Source: Parcubacteria group bacterium
GTDB lineage: Bacteria > Patescibacteriota > Minisyncoccia > Moranbacterales > UBA11712
Assembly: GCA_041659685.1 (NCBI GenBank)
Contig: JBAZXV010000004.1
Coordinates: 6,355 to 70,354 of the forward strand
Reading direction: 5' to 3'
DNA: 64,000 nucleotides
Positions 170-60,785 of the stretch are shown piece by piece. Both the position numbers and the translations under genes were made by a program. The notes below the pieces were generated by a model. The model was not told where the DNA came from, made no database searches, and saw nothing but the letters and a program-made list of their open reading frames with translations. Numbering within the stretch: the stretch's first letter is position 1; each line of letters begins with the position of its first letter.

Positions 170-262
170 GCAGATTAAGCGCAGATTGTTTACAAATTTG
201 ACGCAGATTACGCAGATTTGTAAAAAATATCTGTGTAATTTGTGTGCAATCCGTTATTAATC
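170..262. repeat. ~90-nt element with words cgcagatt / acgcagat / atctgtgt / tttgtg; a second homologous copy is at 52506-52640
   Basis: Direct by-eye alignment of the two regions: cagattaaRcgcaga..ttacgcagat..aaatttg..atctgtgt..aatttgtg; same order and orientation in both. Confidence 0.5.
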
Positions 263-284
263 CGCGTAAAATCCGTCAAATCAT

Positions 285-1733: not shown

Positions 1734-2990
1734 ATGGGAAAGGGAGATATAATTGTCGGACTGGATGTGGGATCATCCAATATTAGAACGGTAATTCTTC
1801 AGAAATTCGAAGAAGAGGAAAAACCGCGCGTTATGGGTGTGGGAACGACTTCTTCTTTTGGCGTGCGCCGGGGAGTAGTGGCTGATATTGAAGAAACCAT
1901 TAAATCGATCGGAGAGGCTGTAAAAAATGCCGAGAGGACATCGGGAATCCCTGTTTCAAAGGCGGTGGTGAGTGTTGGCGGGAATCACATTAAATACCAG
2001 GAAAGTCAGGGCGTTGTAGCCATCGGAAAGGCGGACGGAGAAATTACAGGCGACGACGTCATGCGGTCGCTTACGGCGGCTGAGACAATATCTCTTCCTT
2101 CCAATGTGGAAATAATCCATGTCATTCCCAGAAGCTTTACGGTGGACGATCAAAAGAATATAAAAGATCCCGTCGGGATGAACGGGATAAGACTTGAAGT
2201 TAACGCCCTTTTGGTTCTGGGCTCTTCACCGGTTGTTAAAAACCTTTCCAAATGCGTATATCAATCCGGCGTTGAGATAGAGGACATGGCCTTTTCCGCT
2301 CTTGCCGCCGCCAAGGCCGCCCTTAACAAAAGGCAAAAGGAGCTGGGAGTGGTTCTGGTGGATATGGGCGGAGGAACTACGAATTTCGTCGTATACGAAG
2401 AAGGAGAACTTGTTCAGGTGGGAGTTATTCCCATCGGCGGAGGCCATATCACAAATGATGTGGCGATAGGCCTCAGGACTTCGATTGATGTGGCTGAAAA
2501 AGTGAAGGTGAATTACGGCTCGGCGCTTCCGGATGATATTAGCAAAAAAGATCAGATTAATTTGGCGGAAATAGACCAAAATGAAGAAGGCGAGGTTTCA
2601 CGGCATCACGTGGCTGAAATCATTGAGGCGCGGCTTGAAGAAATATTCACGATGATCGACAAGGAGCTCAGGAAAACAGGCCGGTCGGGAATGCTTCCGG
2701 CAGGAGCGTTGATCGTCGGCGGCGGAGCCAAACTTCCCGGAATTGTCGACCTTGCGAAGAAAATTTTGAGGCTCCCGGCTCAGACGGGTTTTCCGCTTGA
2801 ACTTGGGGGAATTGTTGACAAAGTTGACGAACCTGGGTTTATCACGGCTGTGGGGCTGGCTCTCTGGGGCATGGAAGAGCTTGCTGACGGGGGATCGGCA
2901 AAGGGAAGGATGCCGGGCATGAACAGTATCCCGAAAATGGGGCAGACAGTGGATAAGATGAAAGGATGGCTAAGGAAATTCTTACCCTAG
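1734..2990 (+). CDS. ftsA: cell division protein FtsA
   Basis: 418 aa; actin-fold motifs GLDVGSSNIRTV, VDMGGGTT, IVGGGAKLPGI; immediately upstream of ftsZ. Confidence 0.9.
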   Translation: MGKGDIIVGLDVGSSNIRTVILQKFEEEEKPRVMGVGTTSSFGVRRGVVADIEETIKSIGEAVKNAERTSGIPVSKAVVSVGGNHIKYQESQGVVAIGKADGEITGDDVMRSLTAAETISLPSNVEIIHVIPRSFTVDDQKNIKDPVGMNGIRLEVNALLVLGSSPVVKNLSKCVYQSGVEIEDMAFSALAAAKAALNKRQKELGVVLVDMGGGTTNFVVYEEGELVQVGVIPIGGGHITNDVAIGLRTSIDVAEKVKVNYGSALPDDISKKDQINLAEIDQNEEGEVSRHHVAEIIEARLEEIFTMIDKELRKTGRSGMLPAGALIVGGGAKLPGIVDLAKKILRLPAQTGFPLELGGIVDKVDEPGFITAVGLALWGMEELADGGSAKGRMPGMNSIPKMGQTVDKMKGWLRKFLP

Positions 2991-3000
2991 GCAAGAATTT

Positions 3001-3130
3001 CAAATCCTAAATCCTAAATCCGAAATCCGAACAATATCCAAATCCAAAAATAAAAATCAAAACATCTTGAATATTTGGGTATTTGAACTTTGGATTTGTT
3101 TAGGATTTGGCGCTTAGAATTTAGGATTTT
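3001..3130. repeat. long imperfect palindrome built from AAATCCTA-like tandem units (hairpin H1) between ftsA and ftsZ
   Basis: Left arm caaatcctaaatcctaaatccgaaatccgaa...atccaaatccaaa; right arm tttggatttgtttaggatttgg..aatttaggatttt is its reverse-complement counterpart. Confidence 0.6.
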
Positions 3131-3138
3131 TTAAGTTC

Positions 3139-3181
3139 TTGACACTTTTTAAGGCACTATGCTAGATTGACATACTGATAA
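3139..3181 (+). promoter_or_regulatory. possible ftsZ promoter region (two TTGACA hexamers, A/T-rich -10 candidates)
   Basis: ttgacac..tatgctagattgacatactgataat lies 25-65 nt upstream of the ftsZ ATG; the hexamer spacing is not ideal. Confidence 0.25.
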
Positions 3182-3204
3182 TTAAAAGGATTTTAGTAAA
3201 TTTT

Positions 3205-4443
3205 ATGGCGGAAATAAAACCAGATGTAGAAACGTTTGCCCGGATAAAGGTTGTCGGGGTTGGCGGATCGGGTGTCAACGCGATCAGCCGCATGATTGAG
3301 TGCAAACTCAAGGGTGTCGAATTTGTTGCGATAAACACTGACGCTCAGGCCCTTCATCATTCAAAAGCGCCGGAGAAAATACATATAGGAAAAAATTTGA
3401 CGAAGGGATTGGGGGCGGGGATGAATCCGGAAATAGGACGTCAGGCGGCGGAAGAAAACCGTGACGAAATTCACGAAGTCCTCAAGGGCGCGGACATGGT
3501 CTTTGTAACTTGCGGGCTGGGCGGAGGAACAGGCACTGGCGCTTCACCGGTTGTGGCTGAAGCCGCCAAGGAAGCCGGAGCCCTGACTATTGCTGTCGTC
3601 ACAAAGCCGTTCAGCTTTGAAGGCGCTCAGAGGAAGGCGATTGCTCATGAGGGTCTTGAAAATTTGAAAGACAGAGTGGACGCGCTCATCGTTGTTCCGA
3701 ATGACAGATTGCTTCAGATAATTGACCGGAAAACGACACTGGTAAACGCTTTCCGGGTTGTCGATGACATTCTCCGGCAAGGCGTTCAGGGAATATCCGA
3801 TCTCATAACCAAGCCCGGCATCGTTAATGTTGATTTTGCGGATGTGAGAGCGATTCTTCAGGATTCCGGATCAGCTCTTATGGGAATTGGAATCGCTTCG
3901 GGTGAAAACAGATCTTCTCAGGCTGCCAAGATGGCCATTAACAGCCCGCTTCTTGAGTTTTCTATTGACGGGGCCAAGGGCATTCTCTTTAATGTAAGCG
4001 GCGGCCCGGATGTCACCATGCTCGAAATTAATGAAGCGGCTAATATTATTACCGAAAGCATTGATCCCAACGCCAAGGTTATTTTCGGGGCCACTATTGA
4101 CGATTCAGCTAAGAAGGGAGAGATCAGCCTGACTGTTGTGGCGGCCGGATTTGATTCTGAAACCGTAAATGAATCTTCAATTATCACTGCCGCGAATCAT
4201 TCCCCGGCTTTTCAGGAGGCTAAAAAGAGCCTTTTTGATGAAGAAGAATCCTTGCCGGCTGTTCCGTCTCAGGTTTCTTCAGCATCCAAAATGGAAGAAA
4301 AGCCGAAATTCATCGTCGAGGAAAAAGTTTCCGATAAGCCCAAACGGAAAATTAATTTCGAATCGAAAGTAAGTTCAATTGGGGAAGACGAAGACGATGA
4401 ACTCGAAATCCCGGCGTTTATCAGAAGAAAAATGAAGAAATAG
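3205..4443 (+). CDS. ftsZ: cell division GTPase FtsZ
   Basis: 412 aa; tubulin signature GGGTGTG ([15 protein letters not shown]), [16 protein letters not shown]; acidic C-terminal tail ending IPAFIRRK. Confidence 0.95.
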
Positions 4444-4526
4444 ATTTACTCTGTTGAATCTGGCGGAAGAACGGCGGCTGACAACTATTTAACAGAGCGA
4501 ATTGTGGATAACTCAGAATTTTACGA

Positions 4527-4556
4527 TAAAAAAGCCTGTTTGACAGGCTTTTTGCA
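4527..4556 (+). terminator. rho-independent terminator after ftsZ
   Basis: aaaaaagcctgtttgacaggcttttt: 7-bp stem agcctgt/acaggct, 4-nt loop, T-run. Confidence 0.6.
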
Positions 4557-4642
4557 ATTGTGGTAAAATTCCTTTCAGGAACACAAGATGTAGTGTAAAA
4601 AGGGGTTCTTCGGATCTCCCTTCTTAATTCTCAAAAATTAGA

Positions 4643-4709
4643 ATTGAGATGTGAGAGTGAGATATGAGAAATTATTCAGACTCACTCCTCAAATCTCTAT
4701 CTCATCTCT
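4643..4709. repeat. imperfect palindrome H2 (gagatRtgag words) immediately upstream of nrdR
   Basis: Left arm gagatgtgagagtgagatatgag, right arm ctcactcctcaaatctctatctcatctc; shares words with H3 (cctcaaatctc, ctctatctca). Confidence 0.55.
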
Positions 4710-4715
4710 AAAATT

Positions 4716-5168
4716 ATGGTTTGTCCTTTCTGCAGTCATATAGAAACAAAAGTGATAGACTCCCGGGAATCCGGCGACGGAAAAGTTATTCGCCGGCGGC
4801 GGGAATGCCTGAAATGCAGGAAGCGCTTCAGTACGTATGAACAGTTAGAGCTTCTGAATTTTGTGGTCATGAAGAAAGACGGGCGAAAGGAGGATTACAA
4901 AAGAGAAAAACTTGAGATGGGAATTAAAAAGGCGCTTGAAAAAAGGCCGGTGGAAGACAGAAAAATAGAGGAAATGGTTGATGAGATTGAATATAAGCTT
5001 CATCAGAAAGGGGATTGCGGCATTTCTTCGAAAGAAATCGGCGGATTGGTTCTGGAAAGATTGAAGGCAATTGACGATGTGGCGTACCTGCGTTTCGTCT
5101 CGGTCTATAAATCTTTTGGCAGCGCAGAAAGCTTTAAGAAAGAAGCGGAGAAACTTTCACAAAGTTGA
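4716..5168 (+). CDS. nrdR: transcriptional repressor NrdR
   Basis: 150 aa; N-terminal zinc ribbon CPFC...CLKC followed by an ATP-cone; MVCPFCSHIETKVIDSR is near-canonical NrdR. Confidence 0.9.
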   Translation: MVCPFCSHIETKVIDSRESGDGKVIRRRRECLKCRKRFSTYEQLELLNFVVMKKDGRKEDYKREKLEMGIKKALEKRPVEDRKIEEMVDEIEYKLHQKGDCGISSKEIGGLVLERLKAIDDVAYLRFVSVYKSFGSAESFKKEAEKLSQS

Positions 5169-5235
5169 GAATCGAGATAGAGATATGAGATCAGAAAATA
5201 ATTTCTTTCAACTCTCTATCTCAAATCTCATGTCT
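5167..5235. repeat. imperfect palindrome H3 between nrdR and nrdD, related to H2
   Basis: gagaatcgagatagagatatgagatc ... caactctctatctcaaatctcatgtc. Confidence 0.55.
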
Positions 5236-5266
5236 AATTTCTAATTTCGGGGGTGAAAACAAAAAA

Positions 5267-7468
5267 ATGATTGCAGTTAAAAAGGGTCAAAAAATGGTCA
5301 GTAAAAAAGAAAGATCCGCCTCAGGCAGGGAGGGTTGCGTTGATCGGGTAGTGAAGCGCGACGGGCGCGTCGTTAAGTTTGAACAGGAAAAAATCACCAA
5401 AGCTGTGATGAAATCTTTCGCGGAAACGGGCGAGGGCAAAGAAGCGGATGCGAAAAAAGTTTCTTCGAAGGTAGTCCAGCTCCTTAATAAAAATTACAAA
5501 AAAGGAAACGTTCCTGAAATCGAGGAAATTCAGGATCTCGTGGAGCGCGTTCTCATGATCCTGGACTTCGAGGAAACCGCTAAAGCCTATATCCTTTATC
5601 GTGAACAGCATCGGAAAATTCGCGAATCGGAAGAAGCGCTTAAGGAAGCGGTGGATCTCGTCGACAAATATATAAAGGAAATCGATTGGCAGGTGAAAGA
5701 AAATGCCAACATGAGTTATTCCCTTCAGGGCCTTAATAACTACATTTCTTCAATTGTCAGCTCAAAATATTGGCTAAACCGCGTTTATTCAAAAGCCATT
5801 CGCGATGCGCACGACGAGGGAGATTTTCATATTCATGATCTCGACAAAATCGCCGCCTACTGCTGCGGCTGGGATCTTCAGGATCTGCTCCGCCGCGGTT
5901 TTACCGGAGTTCCCGGGAAAATCGCCTGCAAACCGCCTAAACACCTCCGAACAACTATCGGGCAGATGGTTAACTTTTTCTATACTCTCCAGGGAGAAGT
6001 GGCAGGTGCGGAAGCATTTTCTAATTTTGACACTCTTTTGGCTCCGTTTGTAAGATACGACGGACTTTCTTTCAAGGAGGTGAAGCAATGCATGCAGGAA
6101 TTCGTTTTTAATGTCAATGTTCCCACCCGGGTCGGATTCCAAACGCCTTTCACGAATATCACCCTGGACATCGTTCCTCCAAAAAATATGGCGGAAGAAT
6201 CGGTGATTATCGGCGGAGTGCCGCAAAAGGAAAAATACGGGGAATTTCAGGAAGAAATGAATATGATAAACAAAGCTTTCGCCGAAGTAATGGCGGAAGG
6301 CGATGCCAACGGGCGGGTTTTCACTTTTCCGATTCCGACCTATAACATCACCCGGGATTTCAATTGGGACGATGAGCACCTGAAGCCTATTTGGGAGATG
6401 ACTGCCAAATATGGCATTCCCTATTTTGCCAATTTCATCAATTCGGATATGGATCCCGACGACGCGCGTTCGATGTGCTGCCGGCTCAGGATAGACAATC
6501 GCGAACTTCATAAGCGAGGAGGCGGACTTTTTGGCGCCAACCCTTTGACCGGTTCGATCGGCGTTGTCACAATTAACCTGGCCCGCATTGGATATTTGGC
6601 GAAGAAAGAATCCAAGAGCAAAGCGGCCGGCAAGAAAGATTTCTACGCGCGGATTGACAAAATAATGGATCTTGCCAAGGAAAGCCTTGAGACAAAAAGA
6701 AAAATCATCGACAGCTTCATGAAGAAGGGACTTTACCCTTACGCGAGATTTTATCTGGACAGCATCTATAAGCGCCGGGGAAATTACTGGGCTAACCATT
6801 TTTCAACAATCGGAATTATCGGGATGAATGAGGCTCTTAAAAATTTCATGGGAGAAACTACGGCAACTGAAAAAGGGATAAAATTTGCCGAAGAAGTTCT
6901 GATTCATATGCGCGAAAGGCTCGTAAAATATCAGGAAGAAACAGGGAATCTTTATAATCTTGAAGCGACTCCGGGCGAAGGAACTTCTTACCGGCTTGCC
7001 ATAAAAGATCGCAAAAAATATCCCGATATGATATTTGCGAACGGTCAAATCGGAGAAAACGATAAGATCGAACCCTACTACACAAATTCCACCCAGCTTC
7101 CCGTCGGGCACACCGATGATTTCTTCGAGGCGCTGCAGCTCCAGGAACCGCTTCAGACGAAATACACCGGCGGAACGGTTTTGCATGGCTTTATGGGGGA
7201 AAGAATCGAAGACATCGAAACAACAAAAAAACTAGTGAGGACAGTTTCCGAAAAATACGCCCTTCCTTACTTTACTTTATCTCCGACCTTCAGCATCTGC
7301 CCGTCGCACGGGTATCTGGTTGGAGAACATGAATTTTGCCCCAAATGCGTTGTGGAGCAAAAGTGCGAAGTTTACTCCCGAATCGTCGGCTATATCCGTC
7401 CCGTTGAACAATGGAACAAAGGCAAGGCGACGGAATATGGAGACCGAAAAGAATTTGTGGTCGGATAA
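5267..7468 (+). CDS. nrdD: anaerobic ribonucleoside-triphosphate reductase, class III
   Basis: 733 aa; N-terminal ATP-cone; CCGWDL motif; C-terminal Zn ribbon CPSHGY..CPKC; glycyl-radical motif SRIVGYIRPV. Confidence 0.92.
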   Translation: MIAVKKGQKMVSKKERSASGREGCVDRVVKRDGRVVKFEQEKITKAVMKSFAETGEGKEADAKKVSSKVVQLLNKNYKKGNVPEIEEIQDLVERVLMILDFEETAKAYILYREQHRKIRESEEALKEAVDLVDKYIKEIDWQVKENANMSYSLQGLNNYISSIVSSKYWLNRVYSKAIRDAHDEGDFHIHDLDKIAAYCCGWDLQDLLRRGFTGVPGKIACKPPKHLRTTIGQMVNFFYTLQGEVAGAEAFSNFDTLLAPFVRYDGLSFKEVKQCMQEFVFNVNVPTRVGFQTPFTNITLDIVPPKNMAEESVIIGGVPQKEKYGEFQEEMNMINKAFAEVMAEGDANGRVFTFPIPTYNITRDFNWDDEHLKPIWEMTAKYGIPYFANFINSDMDPDDARSMCCRLRIDNRELHKRGGGLFGANPLTGSIGVVTINLARIGYLAKKESKSKAAGKKDFYARIDKIMDLAKESLETKRKIIDSFMKKGLYPYARFYLDSIYKRRGNYWANHFSTIGIIGMNEALKNFMGETTATEKGIKFAEEVLIHMRERLVKYQEETGNLYNLEATPGEGTSYRLAIKDRKKYPDMIFANGQIGENDKIEPYYTNSTQLPVGHTDDFFEALQLQEPLQTKYTGGTVLHGFMGERIEDIETTKKLVRTVSEKYALPYFTLSPTFSICPSHGYLVGEHEFCPKCVVEQKCEVYSRIVGYIRPVEQWNKGKATEYGDRKEFVVG

Positions 7469-7475
7469 TTTTCTC

Positions 7476-7565
7476 GAAACGCGCAACTCGTAACGCATAA
7501 CGATTTTTCTAAGATGATCTTCAATCGGGCGTTTCGGGTTGCGCGTTATGCGTTATGCGTTATGC
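7476..7565. repeat. imperfect palindrome H4 (cgttatg tandem units) between nrdD and nrdG
   Basis: cgaaacgcgcaactcgtaacgcataacg ... cgtttcgggttgcgcgttatgcgttatgcgttatgcg; the arms are reverse complements. Confidence 0.6.
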
Positions 7566-7572
7566 GTTATGC

Positions 7573-8275
7573 GAAAAATATGATTATCGGAGGACTCCAA
7601 AAACTGACCCTTATTGATTATCCCGGTCACATCGCGGCCACGGTTTTTACCGTGGGCTGTAATTTTCGCTGTCCGTTTTGCCATAATCCCGAACTCGTGG
7701 AACATGGAAAATGGAACATGGAACGCAAAATAGAAGAAGAGTTCTTCCAATTGTTGAGAGAAAGGCAGGGGAAGCTCGAAGGCGTGTGTATCACTGGCGG
7801 GGAACCGACGATTCAGCCTGATATCATTGATTTTATCCGAAAAATAAAGGAGCTGGGATTCAAAGTAAAATTGGATACAAACGGAACACGGCCAGACGTT
7901 TTGAGGCTTTTATATGCCCAAAATTTGCTCGATTATACGGCTATGGACATCAAAAATTCACTGGAAAATTACGCCAAAACAGCGAATAATAATCTGGACA
8001 TCGAGCGTATCAAACTAAGCGTGAATCTTATCAGAAATTCTGGCGTTGATTATGAATTTCGAACCACAGTTGTTCCGGGTTTGCATAAAGAAGGAGATTT
8101 TGAGAAAATAGGAAAATGGCTTGAAGGCGTGAAAAAATATGTATTGCAAGCCTACGAAGACAAGGGGAAAATTCTGGATCCGAATCTGAAGAAGAGAATA
8201 AAAGGGAAAAAGATGGATTTGGAGAAAATAGGAAAAAATATTGAAAAGTATTTTGGGAAAGTGGAGATTAGATGA
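7573..8275 (+). CDS. nrdG: anaerobic ribonucleotide reductase activating protein (radical SAM)
   Basis: CNFRCPFCHN CxxxCxxC cluster; typical NrdG N-terminus MIIGGLQKLTLIDYPG. The track ORF starts at 7514 inside hairpin H4; the ATG at 7573 is preferred. Confidence 0.85.
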
Positions 8276-8276
8276 A

Positions 8277-8378
8277 CTCAAAATTCAAAACGCAAAACTC
8301 AAAGCTACAGCGCAAAGCTAAAAACTTTTTTGAAATTTTGAATTTTGAACTGTAGCTTTGCACTTTGCGCTCAAATTC
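8277..8378. repeat. imperfect palindrome H5 after nrdG; homologous to H6 at 48422-48526
   Basis: ctcaaaattcaaaacgcaaaactcaaagctacagcgcaaagctaaaaac ... gaactgtagctttgcactttgcgctcaaattc; shares long words with H6 (ctcaaagcta, agcgcaaa, ctttgcgct). Confidence 0.6.
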
Positions 8379-8633
8379 ATGTTCAAAAAACTCTTCCTAA
8401 TTATCATAATTCTCGCAGTCGCCGTCGTCTGGCTTGGCGGTATTTTCTCAGTTTATTTTTCACCTTTTTCTTTTACGATTCAAAAACCGGAAAAGGATTT
8501 TATGAAAAAAGTTGTTCGAAAAATCGAAGGATTCGTTTACCGGGAAGCAACCGAGCATAATCCGGCAGGAGATATGCTTCCCGACCAGATAGACGATAAT
8601 ATTAAAAAAGAAATCAAGGACAGGGTGAATTGA
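8379..8633 (+). CDS. small membrane-anchored hypothetical protein
   Basis: ORF with an N-terminal TM helix (MFKKLFLIIIILAVAVVWLGGIF); no recognisable family. Confidence 0.4.
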   Translation: MFKKLFLIIIILAVAVVWLGGIFSVYFSPFSFTIQKPEKDFMKKVVRKIEGFVYREATEHNPAGDMLPDQIDDNIKKEIKDRVN

Positions 8634-9048: not shown

Positions 9049-9981
9049 ATGAATTTATATTCAGAAAAAATAAGCTTTAAAGCTCTGGGAACTGATATTC
9101 AGGCGGAAATAATTTTCGGCGATGCATCAAAAAAAGAAAAAGCGGAATCGGACCTTGAGTCGCTGAAAGATATTTATTTTACCAAACAAAAAATTTTTTG
9201 CCGTTTTTATGGAAAAAGCGAGCTCAACCGTTTGAATTCGAATTTGGGGTCATTTCAGAAGGCCTTGCCCGATATCGTGTATTTGGCCAAGCGGGCTCTT
9301 TTTTATAACAAATTGAGCGGCGGAATGTACGATCCGCGCGTTATTGAAATCCTTGAAAAAATCGGATACAAAAAAGATTTTAAAAAAACCGACTTTTCAA
9401 AAATGGAAATGCCGGAAAATTTTGATGAAATCGCAACACCCTTAAGCGGGGATCTCAAAATCAGGGAGGAAAAATTATTTTTTGCGCGGCGGATGGATTT
9501 CTCCGGCATCGCCAAAGGTTATATCACTGACTGCGCCGCAAAATTTTTGAAAAGCAGGGGCTGGCATGATTTCTTGATTAATTCGGGCGGAGATATGTCG
9601 ATTGCGGGAAAAAACGCCGAAGGGGAAAAATGGAGAATTGAAATTGAAGGCGTGCCGAAAGAAAAAATGATGCTTGAAATATCCGAAAGAGGAATTGCCA
9701 CCTCCGGAATCAGCCGGAAAAAATGGCAAATTAAAGGAAAAAAATTCCATCATCTCGTGAATCCGAAGGATCCGAACAGCTATTCCTATGAAATTCGGAC
9801 TGTTTCCGTAATCGCAAAAAATACGGAAAACGCCGACGGACGGGCAAAAACATTGGTTCTGATGGGGAAGGAAAGAGGAATGAATTTTGCGGAAAAAAAC
9901 GGAATTGCCGCCGTTTTTTTGGATTATAAAGGCGGCATCTTCATCACCCCCGAATCCAAAAAATATCTTGCCTCCACTTAG
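9049..9981 (+). CDS. apbE: FAD:protein FMN transferase (ApbE family)
   Basis: 310 aa; ApbE motifs GIAKGY..D, INSGGDMSIAG, HHLVNPKDP. Confidence 0.8.
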   Translation: MNLYSEKISFKALGTDIQAEIIFGDASKKEKAESDLESLKDIYFTKQKIFCRFYGKSELNRLNSNLGSFQKALPDIVYLAKRALFYNKLSGGMYDPRVIEILEKIGYKKDFKKTDFSKMEMPENFDEIATPLSGDLKIREEKLFFARRMDFSGIAKGYITDCAAKFLKSRGWHDFLINSGGDMSIAGKNAEGEKWRIEIEGVPKEKMMLEISERGIATSGISRKKWQIKGKKFHHLVNPKDPNSYSYEIRTVSVIAKNTENADGRAKTLVLMGKERGMNFAEKNGIAAVFLDYKGGIFITPESKKYLAST

Positions 9982-24922: not shown

Positions 24923-25024
24923 ATGAATATTAATCAAACCAAAACATTTTTCTTTAGCTATTATTTTTTCTGGTTTACACGCCAGGTCGGTTTTGGTTTG
25001 AGTAGAATTTTAGCAAAAAGATAA
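24923..25024 (+). CDS. aromatic-rich leader peptide (33 aa: MNINQTKTFFFSYYFFWFTRQVGFGLSRILAKR)
   Basis: Begins ~10 nt after the promoter's predicted start site; 8 Phe, 2 Tyr and 1 Trp clustered as TFFFSYYFFWFT; followed by a GC-rich stem + U7 and then PDT/TyrA genes. Confidence 0.5.
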   Translation: MNINQTKTFFFSYYFFWFTRQVGFGLSRILAKR

Positions 25025-30260: not shown

Positions 30261-31287
30261 ACAGGCAGCGAAAAATCGTGCCCAAGTCGAAATTAACGGG
30301 GAGGCAGAAATGGCTACAGAAGTTTTATGTTCAGCCGCTGAAGGCTCGGAAAATTGCAGGGAGCGATGCAAAGAAGGGAAATGTCCTTATGGGTGTCCGG
30401 AGAGTAGCTGTCCTCCGATCAGGCAAAGACTGGGGCATGTTTCCGTGAGGCCGGCTGCGGTCAACGGACAAAGGTTTTCCGCTCGGGCCTAACGTGCGGC
30501 AATAAGCCACGTATTTAAAAGAACCAAAAAGATAAATCGCAGGTCCAAAATTTTCCGGGCATAGCTCATTGTTGCTATGCATCCGGGGGGAGGATCACAG
30601 CGCAACACGCTGTCTCCCTGGGAGTAACCAAACTCCCTTTTTTTGTTGACAAAATATCTTGAGTGTATATCACAAAGGGAGAAAATAAACAAATAGATCC
30701 GCGATATGCCGCAGGAAGGCAAGCTCTTCAATTCAGGAGAGCACAGTGCCAGAATGGGGTCGGGGTTCGAAAGAGCCCTGACCCCATCATCTTAAATCAG
30801 AGTTAAATTTATATGAACAACCAGTATTAACGTCGGTTTTTAGGATTATGAAAATTTATCCAATAACAAAATTATACATTCTGCTATTGCAAAAAAAGCT
30901 GGTTTTTTGCCAAACAAATTGTTTTGCATAGTTTATTTTTAGAACTAACAGAGAAATTTGCCCGGCAAAAAAGTCGGGCATCTTTAATTCAGAAGGGAGA
31001 AGCAATGCCGATTACAGTTAGAATTATCGCCGAACTTATGAGCGGACAGGAAAAAGGGATTGAGCGCCAGACGTGAGAAGTTTGCCGTCAAAAGAGACCG
31101 ATGTATTTCCAGCATTGTCTGGATGATCTGCAGTCGTTTCTGGAGGAGAAGCTTAGCGAATTTCTCCGCGGCGCGCCGGTAAAGGTGGAAATTCAAACGG
31201 ATTCCAATCTACCCGCATAAAAATTTTGCCGGCAGAGCGGGGCTGCAAAGCCAGCCTCACTCAATATCAATTAACTTTGGGAATTTA

Positions 31288-47907: not shown

Positions 47908-48429
47908 TTAACAGGTAAAATAAAGAATAAGGCTGGCAAATATGAGGAGGGAAATCGGGAAGGCCATCTTTTGGCCTTTGAAATACGAGATATTTCCGTT
48001 TCTTTTTTTGAGATAAATGTGAAGAAATGCTCCGCCGGAGAATAAGACGCTTCCCAAAATTATCCCAAAAAGAAGCTTGTCAAAGCCGCAAAACGTATTC
48101 AGCGGGTGGCCTATTTTCCCCTTGAGCCATAAGGGGAGGAGAATGATGGTATAATAGCCGGTAAAAACCAAAATCTTGCGTCCTTTGAATCGGATATTCT
48201 TCCCGCCGAGCCAGTTGATTGTCCAAACCGACATTGAAACAATCAGCGCGCCGATCCAAAGCCCGGAAATTGAATCGTCAATGCCGAAATATTCCGCCAA
48301 ACCGAGCCCTGCTCCGACTGCCACAGTGCAGACGGGGCAGACGGCGAACGCTGATTTGGCGATTAGCGCTGATAGCACAATACAGCTGGAAATTATGTAT
48401 TTTTTGTTTGGCATATTATATAAGCTCAA
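47908..48429 (-). CDS. polytopic membrane protein with a CPVC motif after TM1
   Basis: 173 aa; ~5 TM helices; CPVC directly after the first TM; divergent from the Cys-rich secreted-protein array. Confidence 0.45.
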   Translation of the reverse strand: MSLYNMPNKKYIISSCIVLSALIAKSAFAVCPVCTVAVGAGLGLAEYFGIDDSISGLWIGALIVSMSVWTINWLGGKNIRFKGRKILVFTGYYTIILLPLWLKGKIGHPLNTFCGFDKLLFGIILGSVLFSGGAFLHIYLKKRNGNISYFKGQKMAFPISLLIFASLILYFTC

Positions 48430-48526
48430 AACTCAAAGCTAAAAGCGCAAAACCAAAATTTAAAGTTAAAAGTTTTTAGTTTTTCGTTGTAGTTTTGCGT
48501 TTTTCATTTTACACTTTGCGCTTATT
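48422..48526. repeat. imperfect palindrome H6, homologous to H5 at 8277-8378
   Basis: aagctcaaaactcaaagctaaaagcgcaaaacc...cgttgtagttttgcg..acactttgcgcttatttc. Confidence 0.6.
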
Positions 48527-48707
48527 TCATTCTATCTCATTTCTCCAATTTTTAAAAGTACGGGTGCCGGGATTTTCAATCGGTCTCTTTTTCGGTTTTC
48601 TGGGCCTGTGGATAAGTCCGGCTCGGATTATTGTTTACGGACAGCAAATGTGTTACTATATTACTAGACTATTGGTCGTAATCGCTATAACAAACAAAAA
48701 TAAAAAA

Positions 48708-52316: not shown

Positions 52317-52502
52317 TTATTTTTTCTTAGACTTTGACTTGGATTTGGTTTTGAGGCATTTGGTGCAGATTTTCAGATTTTTCCCGTCGATTTTTTTGGA
52401 TTGAAGGTTAATCGCCATAACTCTTTTTGTGGCGATATTGGAATGGGAGCGTTTTTGCGCGGACTTAGGACCGCGACCGCAGACTTGGCAAACTCTGGAC
52501 AT
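52317..52502 (-). CDS. rpmB: 50S ribosomal protein L28
   Basis: MSRVCQVCGRGPKSAQKRSHSNIATKRVMAINLQ is a classic L28; the track ORF is 18 codons longer, so the ATG at 52502 is preferred. Confidence 0.85.
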   Translation of the reverse strand: MSRVCQVCGRGPKSAQKRSHSNIATKRVMAINLQSKKIDGKNLKICTKCLKTKSKSKSKKK

Positions 52503-52505
52503 ATT

Positions 52506-52640
52506 TATTGACAGATTAAACGCAGAATTTGGACAGATTTTACGCAGATGACGCAAATTTGAATAAATCTGTGTTATCTGTGTTTAATCTTTGGCAAAAA
52601 TCTGTGTAAAATTTGTGCGTTCAGTTGCTTAATTAACCTA
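52506..52640. repeat. second copy of the cgcagatt/acgcagat/atctgtgt element (cf. 170-262)
   Basis: cagattaaacgcagaatttggacagattttacgcagatgacgcaaatttgaataaatctgtgttatctgtgtttaat...aaaatctgtgtaaaatttgtgcg. Confidence 0.5.
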
Positions 52641-53545: not shown

Positions 53546-54220
53546 ATGAAGAAAAAAACAAAGAATAACAGAGTGAGTCTTCGCCCAATTTTTTGGCTGG
53601 GAGTCTTGACGTTGGGATTATTGATTGGTATCTCCATTCAATTCACTCGCGCCTGGGTTGAGCCTTCTGCAACCGCGCCGGACGGGAATGTCGCCGCGCC
53701 AATAAATACGGGAGCGAACGAACAAGTGAAAACAGGAACGGCTTCTCAAAAAGCGGATATTTGCGTTGACGCTCACGGCACCGGAGACAAGAAATGTCTC
53801 AGCGACCTGGTGAGTTTCCCGGCCTGCACCCTTGCGGGAGGAATCCCGTCAACCGTCGGTTCCGCAACCATCTGTAAATTTGCCGGCGCGTCCTGTCCTT
53901 CGGGATGGAGCCAATATTTGAATTATACCGAAACAACCGCCAATACCTGCACGGGAGCGGGAAATTGCGCAACGAGTGTTACTACCGGACATCACGCGTT
54001 TGCGAATATAGATCCGGCAACCGAAGCGGGAACTTATCAAGACTGCACCTCTTCTTGGAATTCTTGTTGCTATACGACCTACAGTTGTCCTCCGGGAGTA
54101 TGGCACCCAATCGGAAGCTGGTGCGGGGCGTCGCCGGAATGCCATGGGTGCGGAGGCACTTCCTCCACACTAAAAACCTGCATGCCGAACATAAATTTTG
54201 TCGGGTGCACATCCAATTAA
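53546..54220 (+). CDS. family A protein A3
   Basis: ISIQFTRAWVEPSATAPDGNVAAPINTGANEQVKTG + conserved core DLVSFPACTLAGGIPSTVGSATICKFAGASCPSGWSQYLNYTETT..NIDPATEA shared with A4 and A5. Confidence 0.6.
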   Translation: MKKKTKNNRVSLRPIFWLGVLTLGLLIGISIQFTRAWVEPSATAPDGNVAAPINTGANEQVKTGTASQKADICVDAHGTGDKKCLSDLVSFPACTLAGGIPSTVGSATICKFAGASCPSGWSQYLNYTETTANTCTGAGNCATSVTTGHHAFANIDPATEAGTYQDCTSSWNSCCYTTYSCPPGVWHPIGSWCGASPECHGCGGTSSTLKTCMPNINFVGCTSN

Positions 54221-59594: not shown

Positions 59595-60008
59595 ATGCCA
59601 ACAATAAATCAACTGAAAAAAAGACCCAGAAAGGTCCAGAAGAATAAAACGAAATCGCCTGCAATGACGAGGATTTTTAATACGCTCAAAAATCGGCCGG
59701 TTGAAACAAACAGCCCTTTTAAGCGCGGCGTTTGCGTCAAAGTGTCGACCACAACTCCAAAAAAACCGAATTCCGCCCTGCGAAAGATTGCCAGGGTGCG
59801 GCTTACGAACGGAATGGAAGTGACGGCTTATATTCCCGGAATCGGACACAATCTTCAGGAACACTCGATTGTTATGATTCGCGGAGGAAGAGTGCCGGAT
59901 CTTCCGGGAGTTCGCTATCACGTTGTGCGCGGAGTATTGGACAGCGCCGGGGTTACGGACCGAAAAAGAGGAAGATCGAAATACGGAGCGAAACGGCCAA
60001 AAGCCTAA
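59595..60008 (+). CDS. rpsL: 30S ribosomal protein S12 (with a ~12-aa insertion after the N-terminal basic segment)
   Basis: [13 protein letters not shown]...[49 protein letters not shown]. Confidence 0.9.
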
Positions 60009-60145
60009 AATGCAAAATGCAAATCTCAAAATTGAAAATGACAGTGTAAAATGTTAAAATGCGTTGAATTATAAAATCATTTTAGCATCGAATAATTTTG
60101 AACTTTGCATTGTCATTTTTCATTTTGATTTTTGAATTTTTAATT
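60009..60145. repeat. imperfect palindrome H7 (aaatgcaaa/gaaaatgacag words) between rpsL and rpsG
   Basis: aaatgcaaaatgcaaatctcaaaattgaaaatgacagtg...ctttgcattgtcatttttcattttgatttttgaattttt. Confidence 0.6.
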
Positions 60146-60158
60146 TAGCGAAGCGATT

Positions 60159-60626: not shown

Positions 60627-60785
60627 TTTCGTTGCGCAAAATGGAATTTCCAATAACCAAATCCCAATCTCCAGATAAATCCCAATGACAAATGACTAAA
60701 TAACCAAAAGTTTGGTGATTGAAAAATTGGTTATTGAATATTATTTGATTACTGGTGCTTGATTATTGGAATTTTAGACAATTTT

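Follow-up and report, generated by a model that had tools for sequence, protein, structure and literature searches.

AT-rich palindromes with a seven-nucleotide period in the gene junctions of the ftsA-nrdG block of a Parcubacteria group bacterium

Introduction

Consecutive junctions of the ftsA-ftsZ-nrdR-nrdD-nrdG gene block of a Parcubacteria group bacterium are occupied by five long hairpins (H1 to H5), which we analysed in a stretch of 64,000 nucleotides, hereafter the window (GenBank assembly GCA_041659685.1, contig JBAZXV010000004.1, positions 6,355 to 70,354, forward strand), and in loci of related genomes. The hairpins repeat with a period of seven nucleotides; elements of the same class are frequent in Moranbacteria and other loci of Parcubacteria type, with hardly any elsewhere; related copies lie at other sites, elements are gained, lost and replaced between relatives, and they stand apart from the regulatory signals of the block. 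The interpretation we prefer, with modest confidence, is that H1 to H5 are members of a class of heptad palindromes that is lineage-wide, and whose elements are non-coding, AT-rich, dispersed, mostly dispensable and grow in heptanucleotide units.

Genomes of the Candidate Phyla Radiation (CPR) are tiny and tightly packed, and recurrent inserts of 70-150 nt in operon junctions are therefore unexpected. Such elements provide a handle on mutation in CPR (slippage by 7 nt, palindrome formation) and on the tolerance of long palindromes, as well as on translation start at CPR genes without a Shine-Dalgarno sequence. They also carry practical consequences, since they mislead start-codon calling (the nrdG open reading frame (ORF) is extended into H4), may pass for terminators, for small RNAs or for microRNA-like hairpins, and make intergenic DNA useless for the alignment of close relatives. 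The searchable literature yielded no account of heptamer tandem repeats from Patescibacteria.

Results

Period and fold of the hairpins

An earlier note, made from this DNA sequence by eye, had placed five long hairpins in consecutive spacers. All five are present where it put them, and all fold better than dinucleotide shuffles (z -3.0 to -4.6; Table 1), with only 0-1 of 200 shuffles folding as well as each; local folding in 170-nt windows was uninformative, every window giving about -45 kcal/mol. A gapless inverted-repeat finder places H1, H3, H4 and H5 with the longest inverted repeats that the window contains. The note had read words of varying length (an 8-mer, a 10-mer) at the different sites. 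The word is instead 7 nt in every arm: self-identity is best at lag 7 in 10 of 10 arms (0.46-0.81), the corresponding shuffle p is at most 0.026 in nine arms and 0.057 in the tenth, and period 7 is also what Tandem Repeats Finder assigns to H1, H2, H4 and H5. The corrected words are AAATCCT, GAGATNN, GCGTTAT/AACGCNN and AACTCAA/CGCAAAN. H2 and H3, on either side of nrdR, are copies of one element, 78% identical.

The period extends beyond the five hairpins. Exact lag-7 tandem runs number 9 in the window against 0.5 expected in shuffles, and among the other lags only 14 is comparably enriched. Across 54 loci of relatives there are 79 runs at lag 7 and 67 at lag 14, other lags giving 1-31, while in the remaining loci every lag-7 run falls in one labelled as CPR and none in a non-CPR locus.

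In three of the hairpins the base of the stem takes in one or both of the codons that flank the spacer. The upstream stop codon is included in the basal helix of H3, H4 and H5, and the helix reaches the next start in H4 and H5. H4 has AACGCNN words on one arm and GCGTTAT x4.4 on the other, and its basal helix pairs ATAATTTTC, which holds the nrdD stop, with GAAAAATAT, directly 5' of the nrdG ATG. H5 is built of AACTCAA, CGCAAAA and GCTAAAA words, and at its base TGAAC, holding the nrdG stop, pairs with GTTCA, which spans the next ATG. H3 ends 36 nt 5' of the nrdD ATG, so that the ribosome-binding region GGGGGTGA stays outside it. The earlier report that H4 overlaps nrdG goes back to the longest ORF, which begins at ATG 7514 in the H4 loop; homologues align from the in-frame ATG 7580, just 3' of H4.

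Distribution in related genomes

Hairpins were catalogued in the window and 90 related loci (1.02 Mb) using a score restricted to Watson-Crick pairs; a G-U-tolerant palindrome score was dropped, its 23 hits being only about twice the 9-15 obtained in shuffles. Of 176 hairpins, 151 are intergenic. Long intergenic hairpins show an excess at an arm period of 7: of the 103 found, 44 have arms that match themselves best at lag 7, 16 at lag 8 and 7 at lag 14, and random segments show no lag-7 peak. The heptad class (n=53) has a mean length of 109 nt, 20% GC and arms that are about 80% complementary. Heptad palindromes reach a density per 100 kb of 7.8 in the window, 4.7 in Moran-like loci and 5.1 in other CPR loci, compared with 0.4 in non-CPR bacteria and archaea. 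Strict period-7 arrays have a clear inverted partner in 10 of 39 cases, against 2 in a reversed-sequence control. No element matched an Rfam family, even at permissive thresholds, where only chance matches to eukaryotic microRNA hairpins appeared, and known RNA families were rejected on this ground.

Related copies at different sites

Families were identified by Smith-Waterman scoring, blastn-short having missed those within the window. Pairwise local alignment scores among window elements form a background with median 9.5 and maximum 22, and four pairs rise above it: H1 with the nrdR-nrdD element of locus L002 (57), the palindromes at 170 and 52496 (46), H5 with that at 48424 (42), and H2 with H3 (24). 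(L-numbers denote loci of related genomes compared with the window.) H1 and the L002 element are 77% identical across the full 128 nt, non-periodic stretches included; their homology ends exactly at the element borders and the flanks are unrelated. H5 and its copy share the terminus CACTTTGCGCTYAWWTTCAT. The 170/52496 family uses 9-11-nt words, so not all such palindromes are heptad-based.

A common layout recurs across genomes, consisting of (AATTTNN)n, AAWCAAW, NNNCAATGA, a loop and the mirror image. A profile built from 24 elements of this AATNNNN type found 61 sites in 43 loci, none of them non-CPR, and its matches in the window include H1 and 60642-60776. Flanking sequences gave no target-site duplication beyond chance, the distribution of flank-match lengths being that of shuffled partners, and no high-copy identical consensus was seen among the elements. 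One palindrome, found in L010 (12100-12250) and L013 (9750-9900), stands before the same downstream gene start with an unrelated upstream flank, and seems to move together with the 5' end of that gene.

Turnover at orthologous junctions

Junctions 1 to 5 (ftsA-ftsZ, the nrdR 5' untranslated region, nrdR-nrdD, nrdD-nrdG, and the spacer after nrdG) were compared one by one in seven to nine close relatives with NrdD 82-92% identical. Both the presence of an element and its words vary at orthologous sites. At junction 1 the word is AAATCCT in the window, TACGAAT in L001 and GATCAGT/GACCAGT in L084, each followed by a T-run and a conserved promoter. Junction 2 has a palindrome in the window, single-arm arrays of TTTTACT in L001 and AATTCTN in L002, and nothing in L083. 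Junction 3 is empty in L001, L084, L086 and L087 (30-53 nt) and occupied by GAGATAG words in the window, an H1-like AAATCCT element in L002/L082, GGAATCA in L085 and a half element in L083. At junction 4 the window, L002, L085 and L086 have homologous AACRYNN/GTTAYRC palindromes that differ in length and words, L099 has an unrelated palindrome, L001 and L084 have a 180-nt non-heptad hairpin, and L042 and L083 only a 2-8 nt spacer. After nrdG follow AACTCAA/CGCAAA words in the window, a GGTCATT palindrome in L002 and L085, AATTTCC in L099, GC-rich hairpins in L001 and L084, and none in L086.

Over all loci, spacers range from 13 to 493 nt at junction 1, from 10 to 321 nt at junction 3 and from 2 to 836 nt at junction 4, and by a strict score long hairpins occur at 8/34, 4/17, 8/60, 11/32 and 2/9 loci for junctions 1 to 5. 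The architecture of the junctions recurs; the sequence is unconserved and the element is dispensable. The non-heptad nrdD-nrdG hairpin of L001 (9183-9362) and L084 (6677-6872), about 180 nt long, is about 93% identical between the two with one compensatory pair, and, by eye only, its conservation exceeds that of the other spacers in the comparison.

Heptamer arrays inside nrdG

The nrdG coding sequence itself carries an in-frame heptamer array (Table 1), which encodes a hypervariable loop following the CxxxCxxC-HNPELV motif, and the word differs by lineage at the same site. Heptamer arrays are not, therefore, confined to sites where an RNA hairpin might help, but arise or persist wherever they are tolerated, and the nrdG arrays fit a mutational process filtered by tolerance. 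In L002 the loop array duplicates the left arm of that locus's own nrdD-nrdG hairpin.

Separation from regulatory signals

Putative sigma-70-type promoters precede ftsZ and the nrdR operon, the latter being the top promoter match of the region. The TTGACA and -10 hexamers of the ftsZ promoter are kept in L001, L002 and L084, 3' of their own unrelated hairpins. The NrdR box is the sole match within 64 kb, where 0 are expected, and ordinary compact GC-rich terminators coexist with the long hairpins in the window. Because promoters, NrdR box and terminator are distinct from the long hairpins, and ordinary terminators are present besides, we regard the hairpins as a separate class; the earlier opinion that they are too regular for ordinary terminators was sound.

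A role in attenuation or pausing, also suggested earlier, finds no support. The promoter, NrdR box and terminator of the nrd operon lie outside the hairpins, H2, H3, H4 or H5 is missing in close relatives, and no conserved alternative pairing or leader logic was seen. An attenuator or riboswitch leader was rejected, as H2 is replaced by single arrays or by nothing in relatives and has no Rfam match. The T-runs said to follow some of the hairpins come down to the one after H1 (3127-3132), with none after H2-H5. In the class at large a T-run follows 8 of 44 co-directional members (18%), and convergent spacers hold 0 of the 51 classified elements, against 4.3 expected from spacer length; intrinsic terminators were accordingly rejected as an explanation of the class. 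Divergent spacers hold 7 of the 51. Single heptamer arrays do occur in convergent spacers (5).

Among stem appositions on the sense strand we counted 123 of G:U type, 144 of A:C type and 421 transversion-type mismatches. There is no excess of G:U over A:C, hence no RNA-level signature, in a comparison of limited power, the terminator-like control itself giving only 47 vs 37. A Shine-Dalgarno sequence precedes 0 of 19 starts next to hairpins against a baseline of 15%, an unreliable figure given crude start calls.

Table 1. Features of the window and heptamer arrays in the NrdG loop of relatives
Locus	Feature	Position	Strand	Remarks
Window	ftsA	1734-2990	+	Pfam FtsA
Window	ftsZ	3205-4443	+	Pfam FtsZ
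Window	nrdR	4716-5168	+	Pfam NrdR
Window	nrdD	5267-7468	+	Pfam NrdD
Window	nrdG	7580-8275	+	Pfam radical S-adenosylmethionine activase
Window	Small ORF after nrdG	8379-8633	+
Window	H1	3002-3129		Between ftsA stop (2990) and ftsZ promoter; -36.3 kcal/mol, z -4.6; AAATCCT/AAATCCG words
Window	H2	4638-4711		nrdR 5' untranslated region, ends ~5 nt before ATG 4716; -24.6 kcal/mol, z -3.7; GAGATNN words
Window	H3	5166-5230		Begins at nrdR stop (TGA 5166-5168); -24.2 kcal/mol, z -3.5; GAGATNN words
Window	H4	7465-7583 (alternative register), core 7478-7547		Fills nrdD-nrdG spacer; -39.5 kcal/mol, z -3.9
Window	H5	8273-8385, core 8291-8369		Fills spacer from nrdG to next ORF; -29.3 kcal/mol, z -3.0
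Window	Putative ftsZ promoter	3139-3168	+	TTGACA-18 nt-TAGATT
Window	ftsZ terminator, short, GC-rich	4533-4553	+	agcctg-tttga-caggct-tttt; folded; conserved in relatives
Window	Putative nrdR-operon promoter	4540-4569	+	TTGACA-18 nt-TAAAAT, TG before -10; conserved in relatives
Window	NrdR box ACACAAGATGTAGTGT	4581-4596	+	Conserved in relatives
Window	In-frame heptamer array TGGAACA x4 in nrdG	7696-7725	+	Encodes loop EHGKWNMER
Window	Palindrome, 9-11-nt words ACGCAGATT	170-281		Kin to 52496-52631; alignment score 46
Window	Second copy of CAGATTTTACG-word palindrome family	52496-52631
Window	Second copy of H5 family	48424-48528		Divergent intergenic region; inverted repeat, lag-7 test; score 42
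Window	Heptad palindrome, AAAATGC and AAAATTG words	60005-60148		Divergent spacer; ends 10 nt before ATG 60159
Window	Second window member of AATNNNN-type family (that of H1)	60642-60776		nhmmer E = 2e-8; inverted repeat
Window	Inverted repeat	24926-25009		Listed by inverted-repeat finder only
L001	NrdG-loop array (AATTTCC)x3-4	9487-9514		Reads ISNFQFPISN
L083	NrdG-loop array (AATTTCC)x3-4	4383-4410		Reads ISNFQFPISN
L099	NrdG-loop array (AATTTCC)x3-4	2619-2639		Reads ISNFQFPISN
L002	NrdG-loop array CACAACT	4679-4706
L085	NrdG-loop array CACGCAA x4	3637-3673
L012	NrdG-loop array AGTTCAC x4	9348-9384

Discussion

Origin and persistence of the heptad palindromes

Under the interpretation that we prefer, arrays would arise and grow by heptanucleotide replication slippage, as has been proposed for the heptamer repeats of other bacteria, and palindromy would be gained or kept via inverted duplication or template switching between the arms. 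Finished palindromes may occasionally be copied to new intergenic sites without a target-site duplication. Elements would survive where the harm they do is small: an insert of 70-130 nt that folds on itself in the messenger RNA would keep the upstream stop near the downstream start or a conserved ribosome-binding site, which is the geometry of H3, H4 and H5. The ancestral state of nrdD-nrdG was probably tight coupling, because nrdG is without a Shine-Dalgarno sequence in all relatives, including those in which it starts 2-8 nt past nrdD, and a self-folding insert would disturb such coupling least. H1 is probably the ftsA terminator as well, given its T-run ahead of the ftsZ promoter.

Several observations weigh against this interpretation. 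Homologues of H4 have changed their words in both arms together, with AACGC/GCGTT in the window and AACAC/GTGTT in L002, so that either conversion between the arms or selection for pairing is needed. Three close orthologous pairs of elements (86-92% identical, a small sample) differ by substitutions only, with no 7-nt indels, and in these comparisons a slippage event was never caught directly. The absence of elements from convergent spacers and the closeness of the 3' arm end to the next start codon (median 10 nt) hint at a link with the 5' ends of genes. The AAT/ATT triplet of each heptad is better conserved across genomes than the other positions, which neutral decay does not predict, and the G:U comparison has the limited power already described. 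Finally, the flanks contain no target motif, and no mobilising enzyme turned up, no search for a transposase having been made.

Alternative explanations

The alternative that survives best is that the hairpins are selected RNA elements of operon transcripts whose shape is kept while the sequence drifts, serving as stabilisers against 3'-exonucleases, RNase III sites, terminators independent of a U-tract, or bridges for translational coupling. The stems predicted for H1-H5 would be long enough for RNase III (double-stranded, at least about 20 bp). In many lineages several of the junctions are filled by hairpins of unrelated sequence, and at junction 1 three different words stand in turn before a T-run and the conserved promoter; the junction-4 homologues stay complementary through their concerted changes, the basal helices of H4 and H5 juxtapose stop and start codons, and elements of the class keep out of convergent spacers and lie close against start codons. 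The conserved AAT/ATT anchor favours a functional reading too, as does nrdG, which is without a Shine-Dalgarno sequence whether or not a hairpin is present and which starts 2-8 nt past the nrdD stop in L042 and L083. Yet a large share of the close relatives have, at each junction, either nothing or no long hairpin, complementarity between the arms reaches only about 80% and the mismatch spectrum is near-random, T-runs are infrequent, and G:U pairs are not in excess, weak as that control is. Copies in divergent spacers and single-arm arrays in coding sequence also speak against a selected RNA, which we consider unlikely, albeit worth keeping in view.

A second possibility is that each hairpin formed in place and was never dispersed, a 7-nt seed slipping into an array and a fold-back template switch then supplying the second arm. 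The words vary from site to site and, at a single site, from lineage to lineage, the coding loop of nrdG having a new word in each lineage; a clear inverted partner accompanies only a minority of the arrays, some of which are single-arm; target-site duplications are lacking; and the stop codon may lie within the repeat, as in TAGGAAT CAGGAAT at junction 3 of L085 and TAG ATCAGTG ACCAGTA at junction 1 of L084. Formation in place leaves unexplained, however, that the four homologous pairs at different sites share non-periodic stretches and termini, and that the layout of the AATNNNN family (…AAWCAAW…CAATGA…) is found at many non-orthologous sites in many genomes. It seems rather improbable to us.

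It is doubtful, in our estimation, that the palindromes are either a CPR-specific cis device, acting through stop-start bridging, re-initiation or AAT/ATT anchors read by a protein, or a new mobile palindrome that leaves no target-site duplication. If the former were true, a long AU-rich hairpin reaching from the stop codon of one cistron to the start codon of the next would keep the two close, and a terminating ribosome could resume initiation on the far side of the insert, much like hairpin-bypass shunting but in bacteria; the latter would be a new type of palindrome moved by some enzyme.

Of the three roles offered in the earlier note (processing sites, attenuators or pausing sites, palindromic repeats resembling MITEs, the miniature inverted-repeat transposable elements), the MITE-like one is the best match by behaviour. 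It is borne out by sharp borders, by variable presence and by the occurrence of related copies at different sites, but the target-site duplication that defines MITEs is missing. We nevertheless think it very unlikely that these are classical MITEs, or elements of the repetitive extragenic palindrome (REP) or REP doublet forming hairpin (REPIN) type, mobilised by a transposase whose gene lies elsewhere in the genome. Palindromic structure, intergenic position, a length of 65-150 nt, small families and variable presence would suit such elements, whereas neither a target-site duplication nor a target motif was seen, no second copy of H1 or H4 exists within 64 kb, and the MITE and REP/REPIN classes are not known for a 7-nt periodicity inside the element. 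The 64-kb window holds pairs only, diverged to 77-80% identity and without near-identical bursts, and no transposase turned up, none having been searched for.

Least credible of all is that the heptads are binding sites read unit by unit by a protein (for example an oligonucleotide-binding (OB) fold of cold-shock type, ~7 nt) controlling translation starts: the conserved AAT/ATT triplet, the position near start codons and the discussion of one CspB per heptamer for the TAACTGA repeats of Beggiatoaceae (PMC4679880) are countered by words that vary widely (GC-rich GCGTTAT, GGTCATT, AT-rich AATTTCT), by the dispensability of the elements in close relatives and by the want of any candidate protein.

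Comparison with known repeats

The nearest precedent for the heptad palindromes is in Xanthomonas, where arrays of the heptamer GGGAATC are intergenic and often form convergent pairs, on opposite strands, able to fold into a stem-loop, with 70-75 cases per genome (Rehm et al. 2015, PMC4692102). Their function is unknown, and close species retain the site but differ in length and sequence (PMC4692102). The convergent pairs are likewise built of tandem 7-nt units, but Xanthomonas uses one G-rich, quadruplex-prone word genome-wide, whereas here there are many, mostly AT-rich words in small, diverging families that often span operon junctions from stop to start, in a CPR host.

Heptanucleotides are also known as short tandemly repeated repetitive (STRR) sequences in cyanobacteria, and a general bacterial excess of heptanucleotide simple repeats has been attributed to proposed slippage on ~7 nt (Mazel 1990; Mrazek 2007; both after PMC4692102 and PMC4679880). 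As these secondary accounts present them, STRRs share with our elements the period of 7, an intergenic bias, lineage specificity and polymerase slippage as the proposed origin, and differ in having few fixed words, mostly in direct arrays, where ours are diverse and usually palindromic. At least six unrelated words occur in the 64-kb window alone, and others in relatives. The GGTCATT word of L002 and L085 is a cyclic permutation of STRR2, TTGGTCA.

The TAACTGA repeats of marine Beggiatoaceae, some cyanobacteria and Bacteroidetes comprise 169 direct sets as against one inverted (MacGregor 2015, PMC4679880). In common with ours, these arrays stand directly 5' of start codons, and relatives have shorter, array-free spacers (PMC4679880); the single-arm arrays before nrdR in L001 and L002 resemble them. 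They differ in that TAACTGA is a single word, almost always direct, whereas the heptad palindromes are inverted and of many words.

Palindromic elements of Rickettsia, reportedly described by Ogata et al. in 2000, are said to be dispersed and ~100-150 nt long, to occur in a reduced genome and to be translated in frame within genes as well. To our knowledge no transposase is known for them. They are not known to be heptad-periodic, and the in-frame pieces seen here are single arrays of ~28 nt rather than whole palindromes. REP elements, REPINs, bacterial interspersed mosaic elements (BIMEs) and MITEs are, like ours, intergenic palindromes in small families of variable presence; ours lack a target-site duplication and a high-copy consensus and have the internal 7-nt period. 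REPs and REPINs, moreover, are ~20-40 nt, GC-rich and high-copy, in genomes with a RAYT transposase, as opposed to 65-150 nt, ~20% GC and low-copy. Like intrinsic terminators, H1 and its junction-1 counterparts in L001 and L084 have a terminal T-run soon after the stop codon, but the stems of the class, 30-60 bp, AT-rich and imperfect, are unlike the compact, GC-rich stems of such terminators. TIGR (tandem interspaced guide RNA) arrays, which also occur in CPR, consist of two alternating 8-12-nt repeats with 9-nt spacers in units of ~36 nt, adjacent to a Tas gene with a Nop domain (PMC12045711). They were rejected as an explanation: the period here is 7, there is no 36-nt unit, and the neighbours are ftsA, ftsZ, nrdR, nrdD and nrdG.

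Other features of the window

Pfam matches bear out the names given earlier to ftsA, ftsZ, nrdR, nrdD and nrdG. The NrdD relatives are from Candidatus Moranbacteria/Moraniibacteriota and other genomes of the Parcubacteria group or Patescibacteria, and the only contig matching the window proteins exactly is 100% identical to the window (same species). The nrdD match is 2.4-2.57 kb long in many relatives (L004, L006, L008-L011, L014, L096, L150 and others) against 2.2 kb in the window, which suggests an insertion (intein or intron) in the former.

NrdR boxes are usually paired; that at 4581-4596 is single. The -35 hexamer of the putative nrdR promoter (4540-4545) overlaps the hairpin of the ftsZ terminator, at its loop and right arm. 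A small GC hairpin, GGGGTTCTTCGGATCTC, with AAAA before it, lies at 4602-4618, past the NrdR box and ahead of H2, and is kept in L001, L002, L084, L085 and L087 and not in L083. Elsewhere in the window, two long, GC-rich intergenic regions at 30583-30983 and 53638-53904 have very stable predicted folds of -130 and -98 kcal/mol and no Rfam match at permissive thresholds, and may be unannotated structured RNAs.

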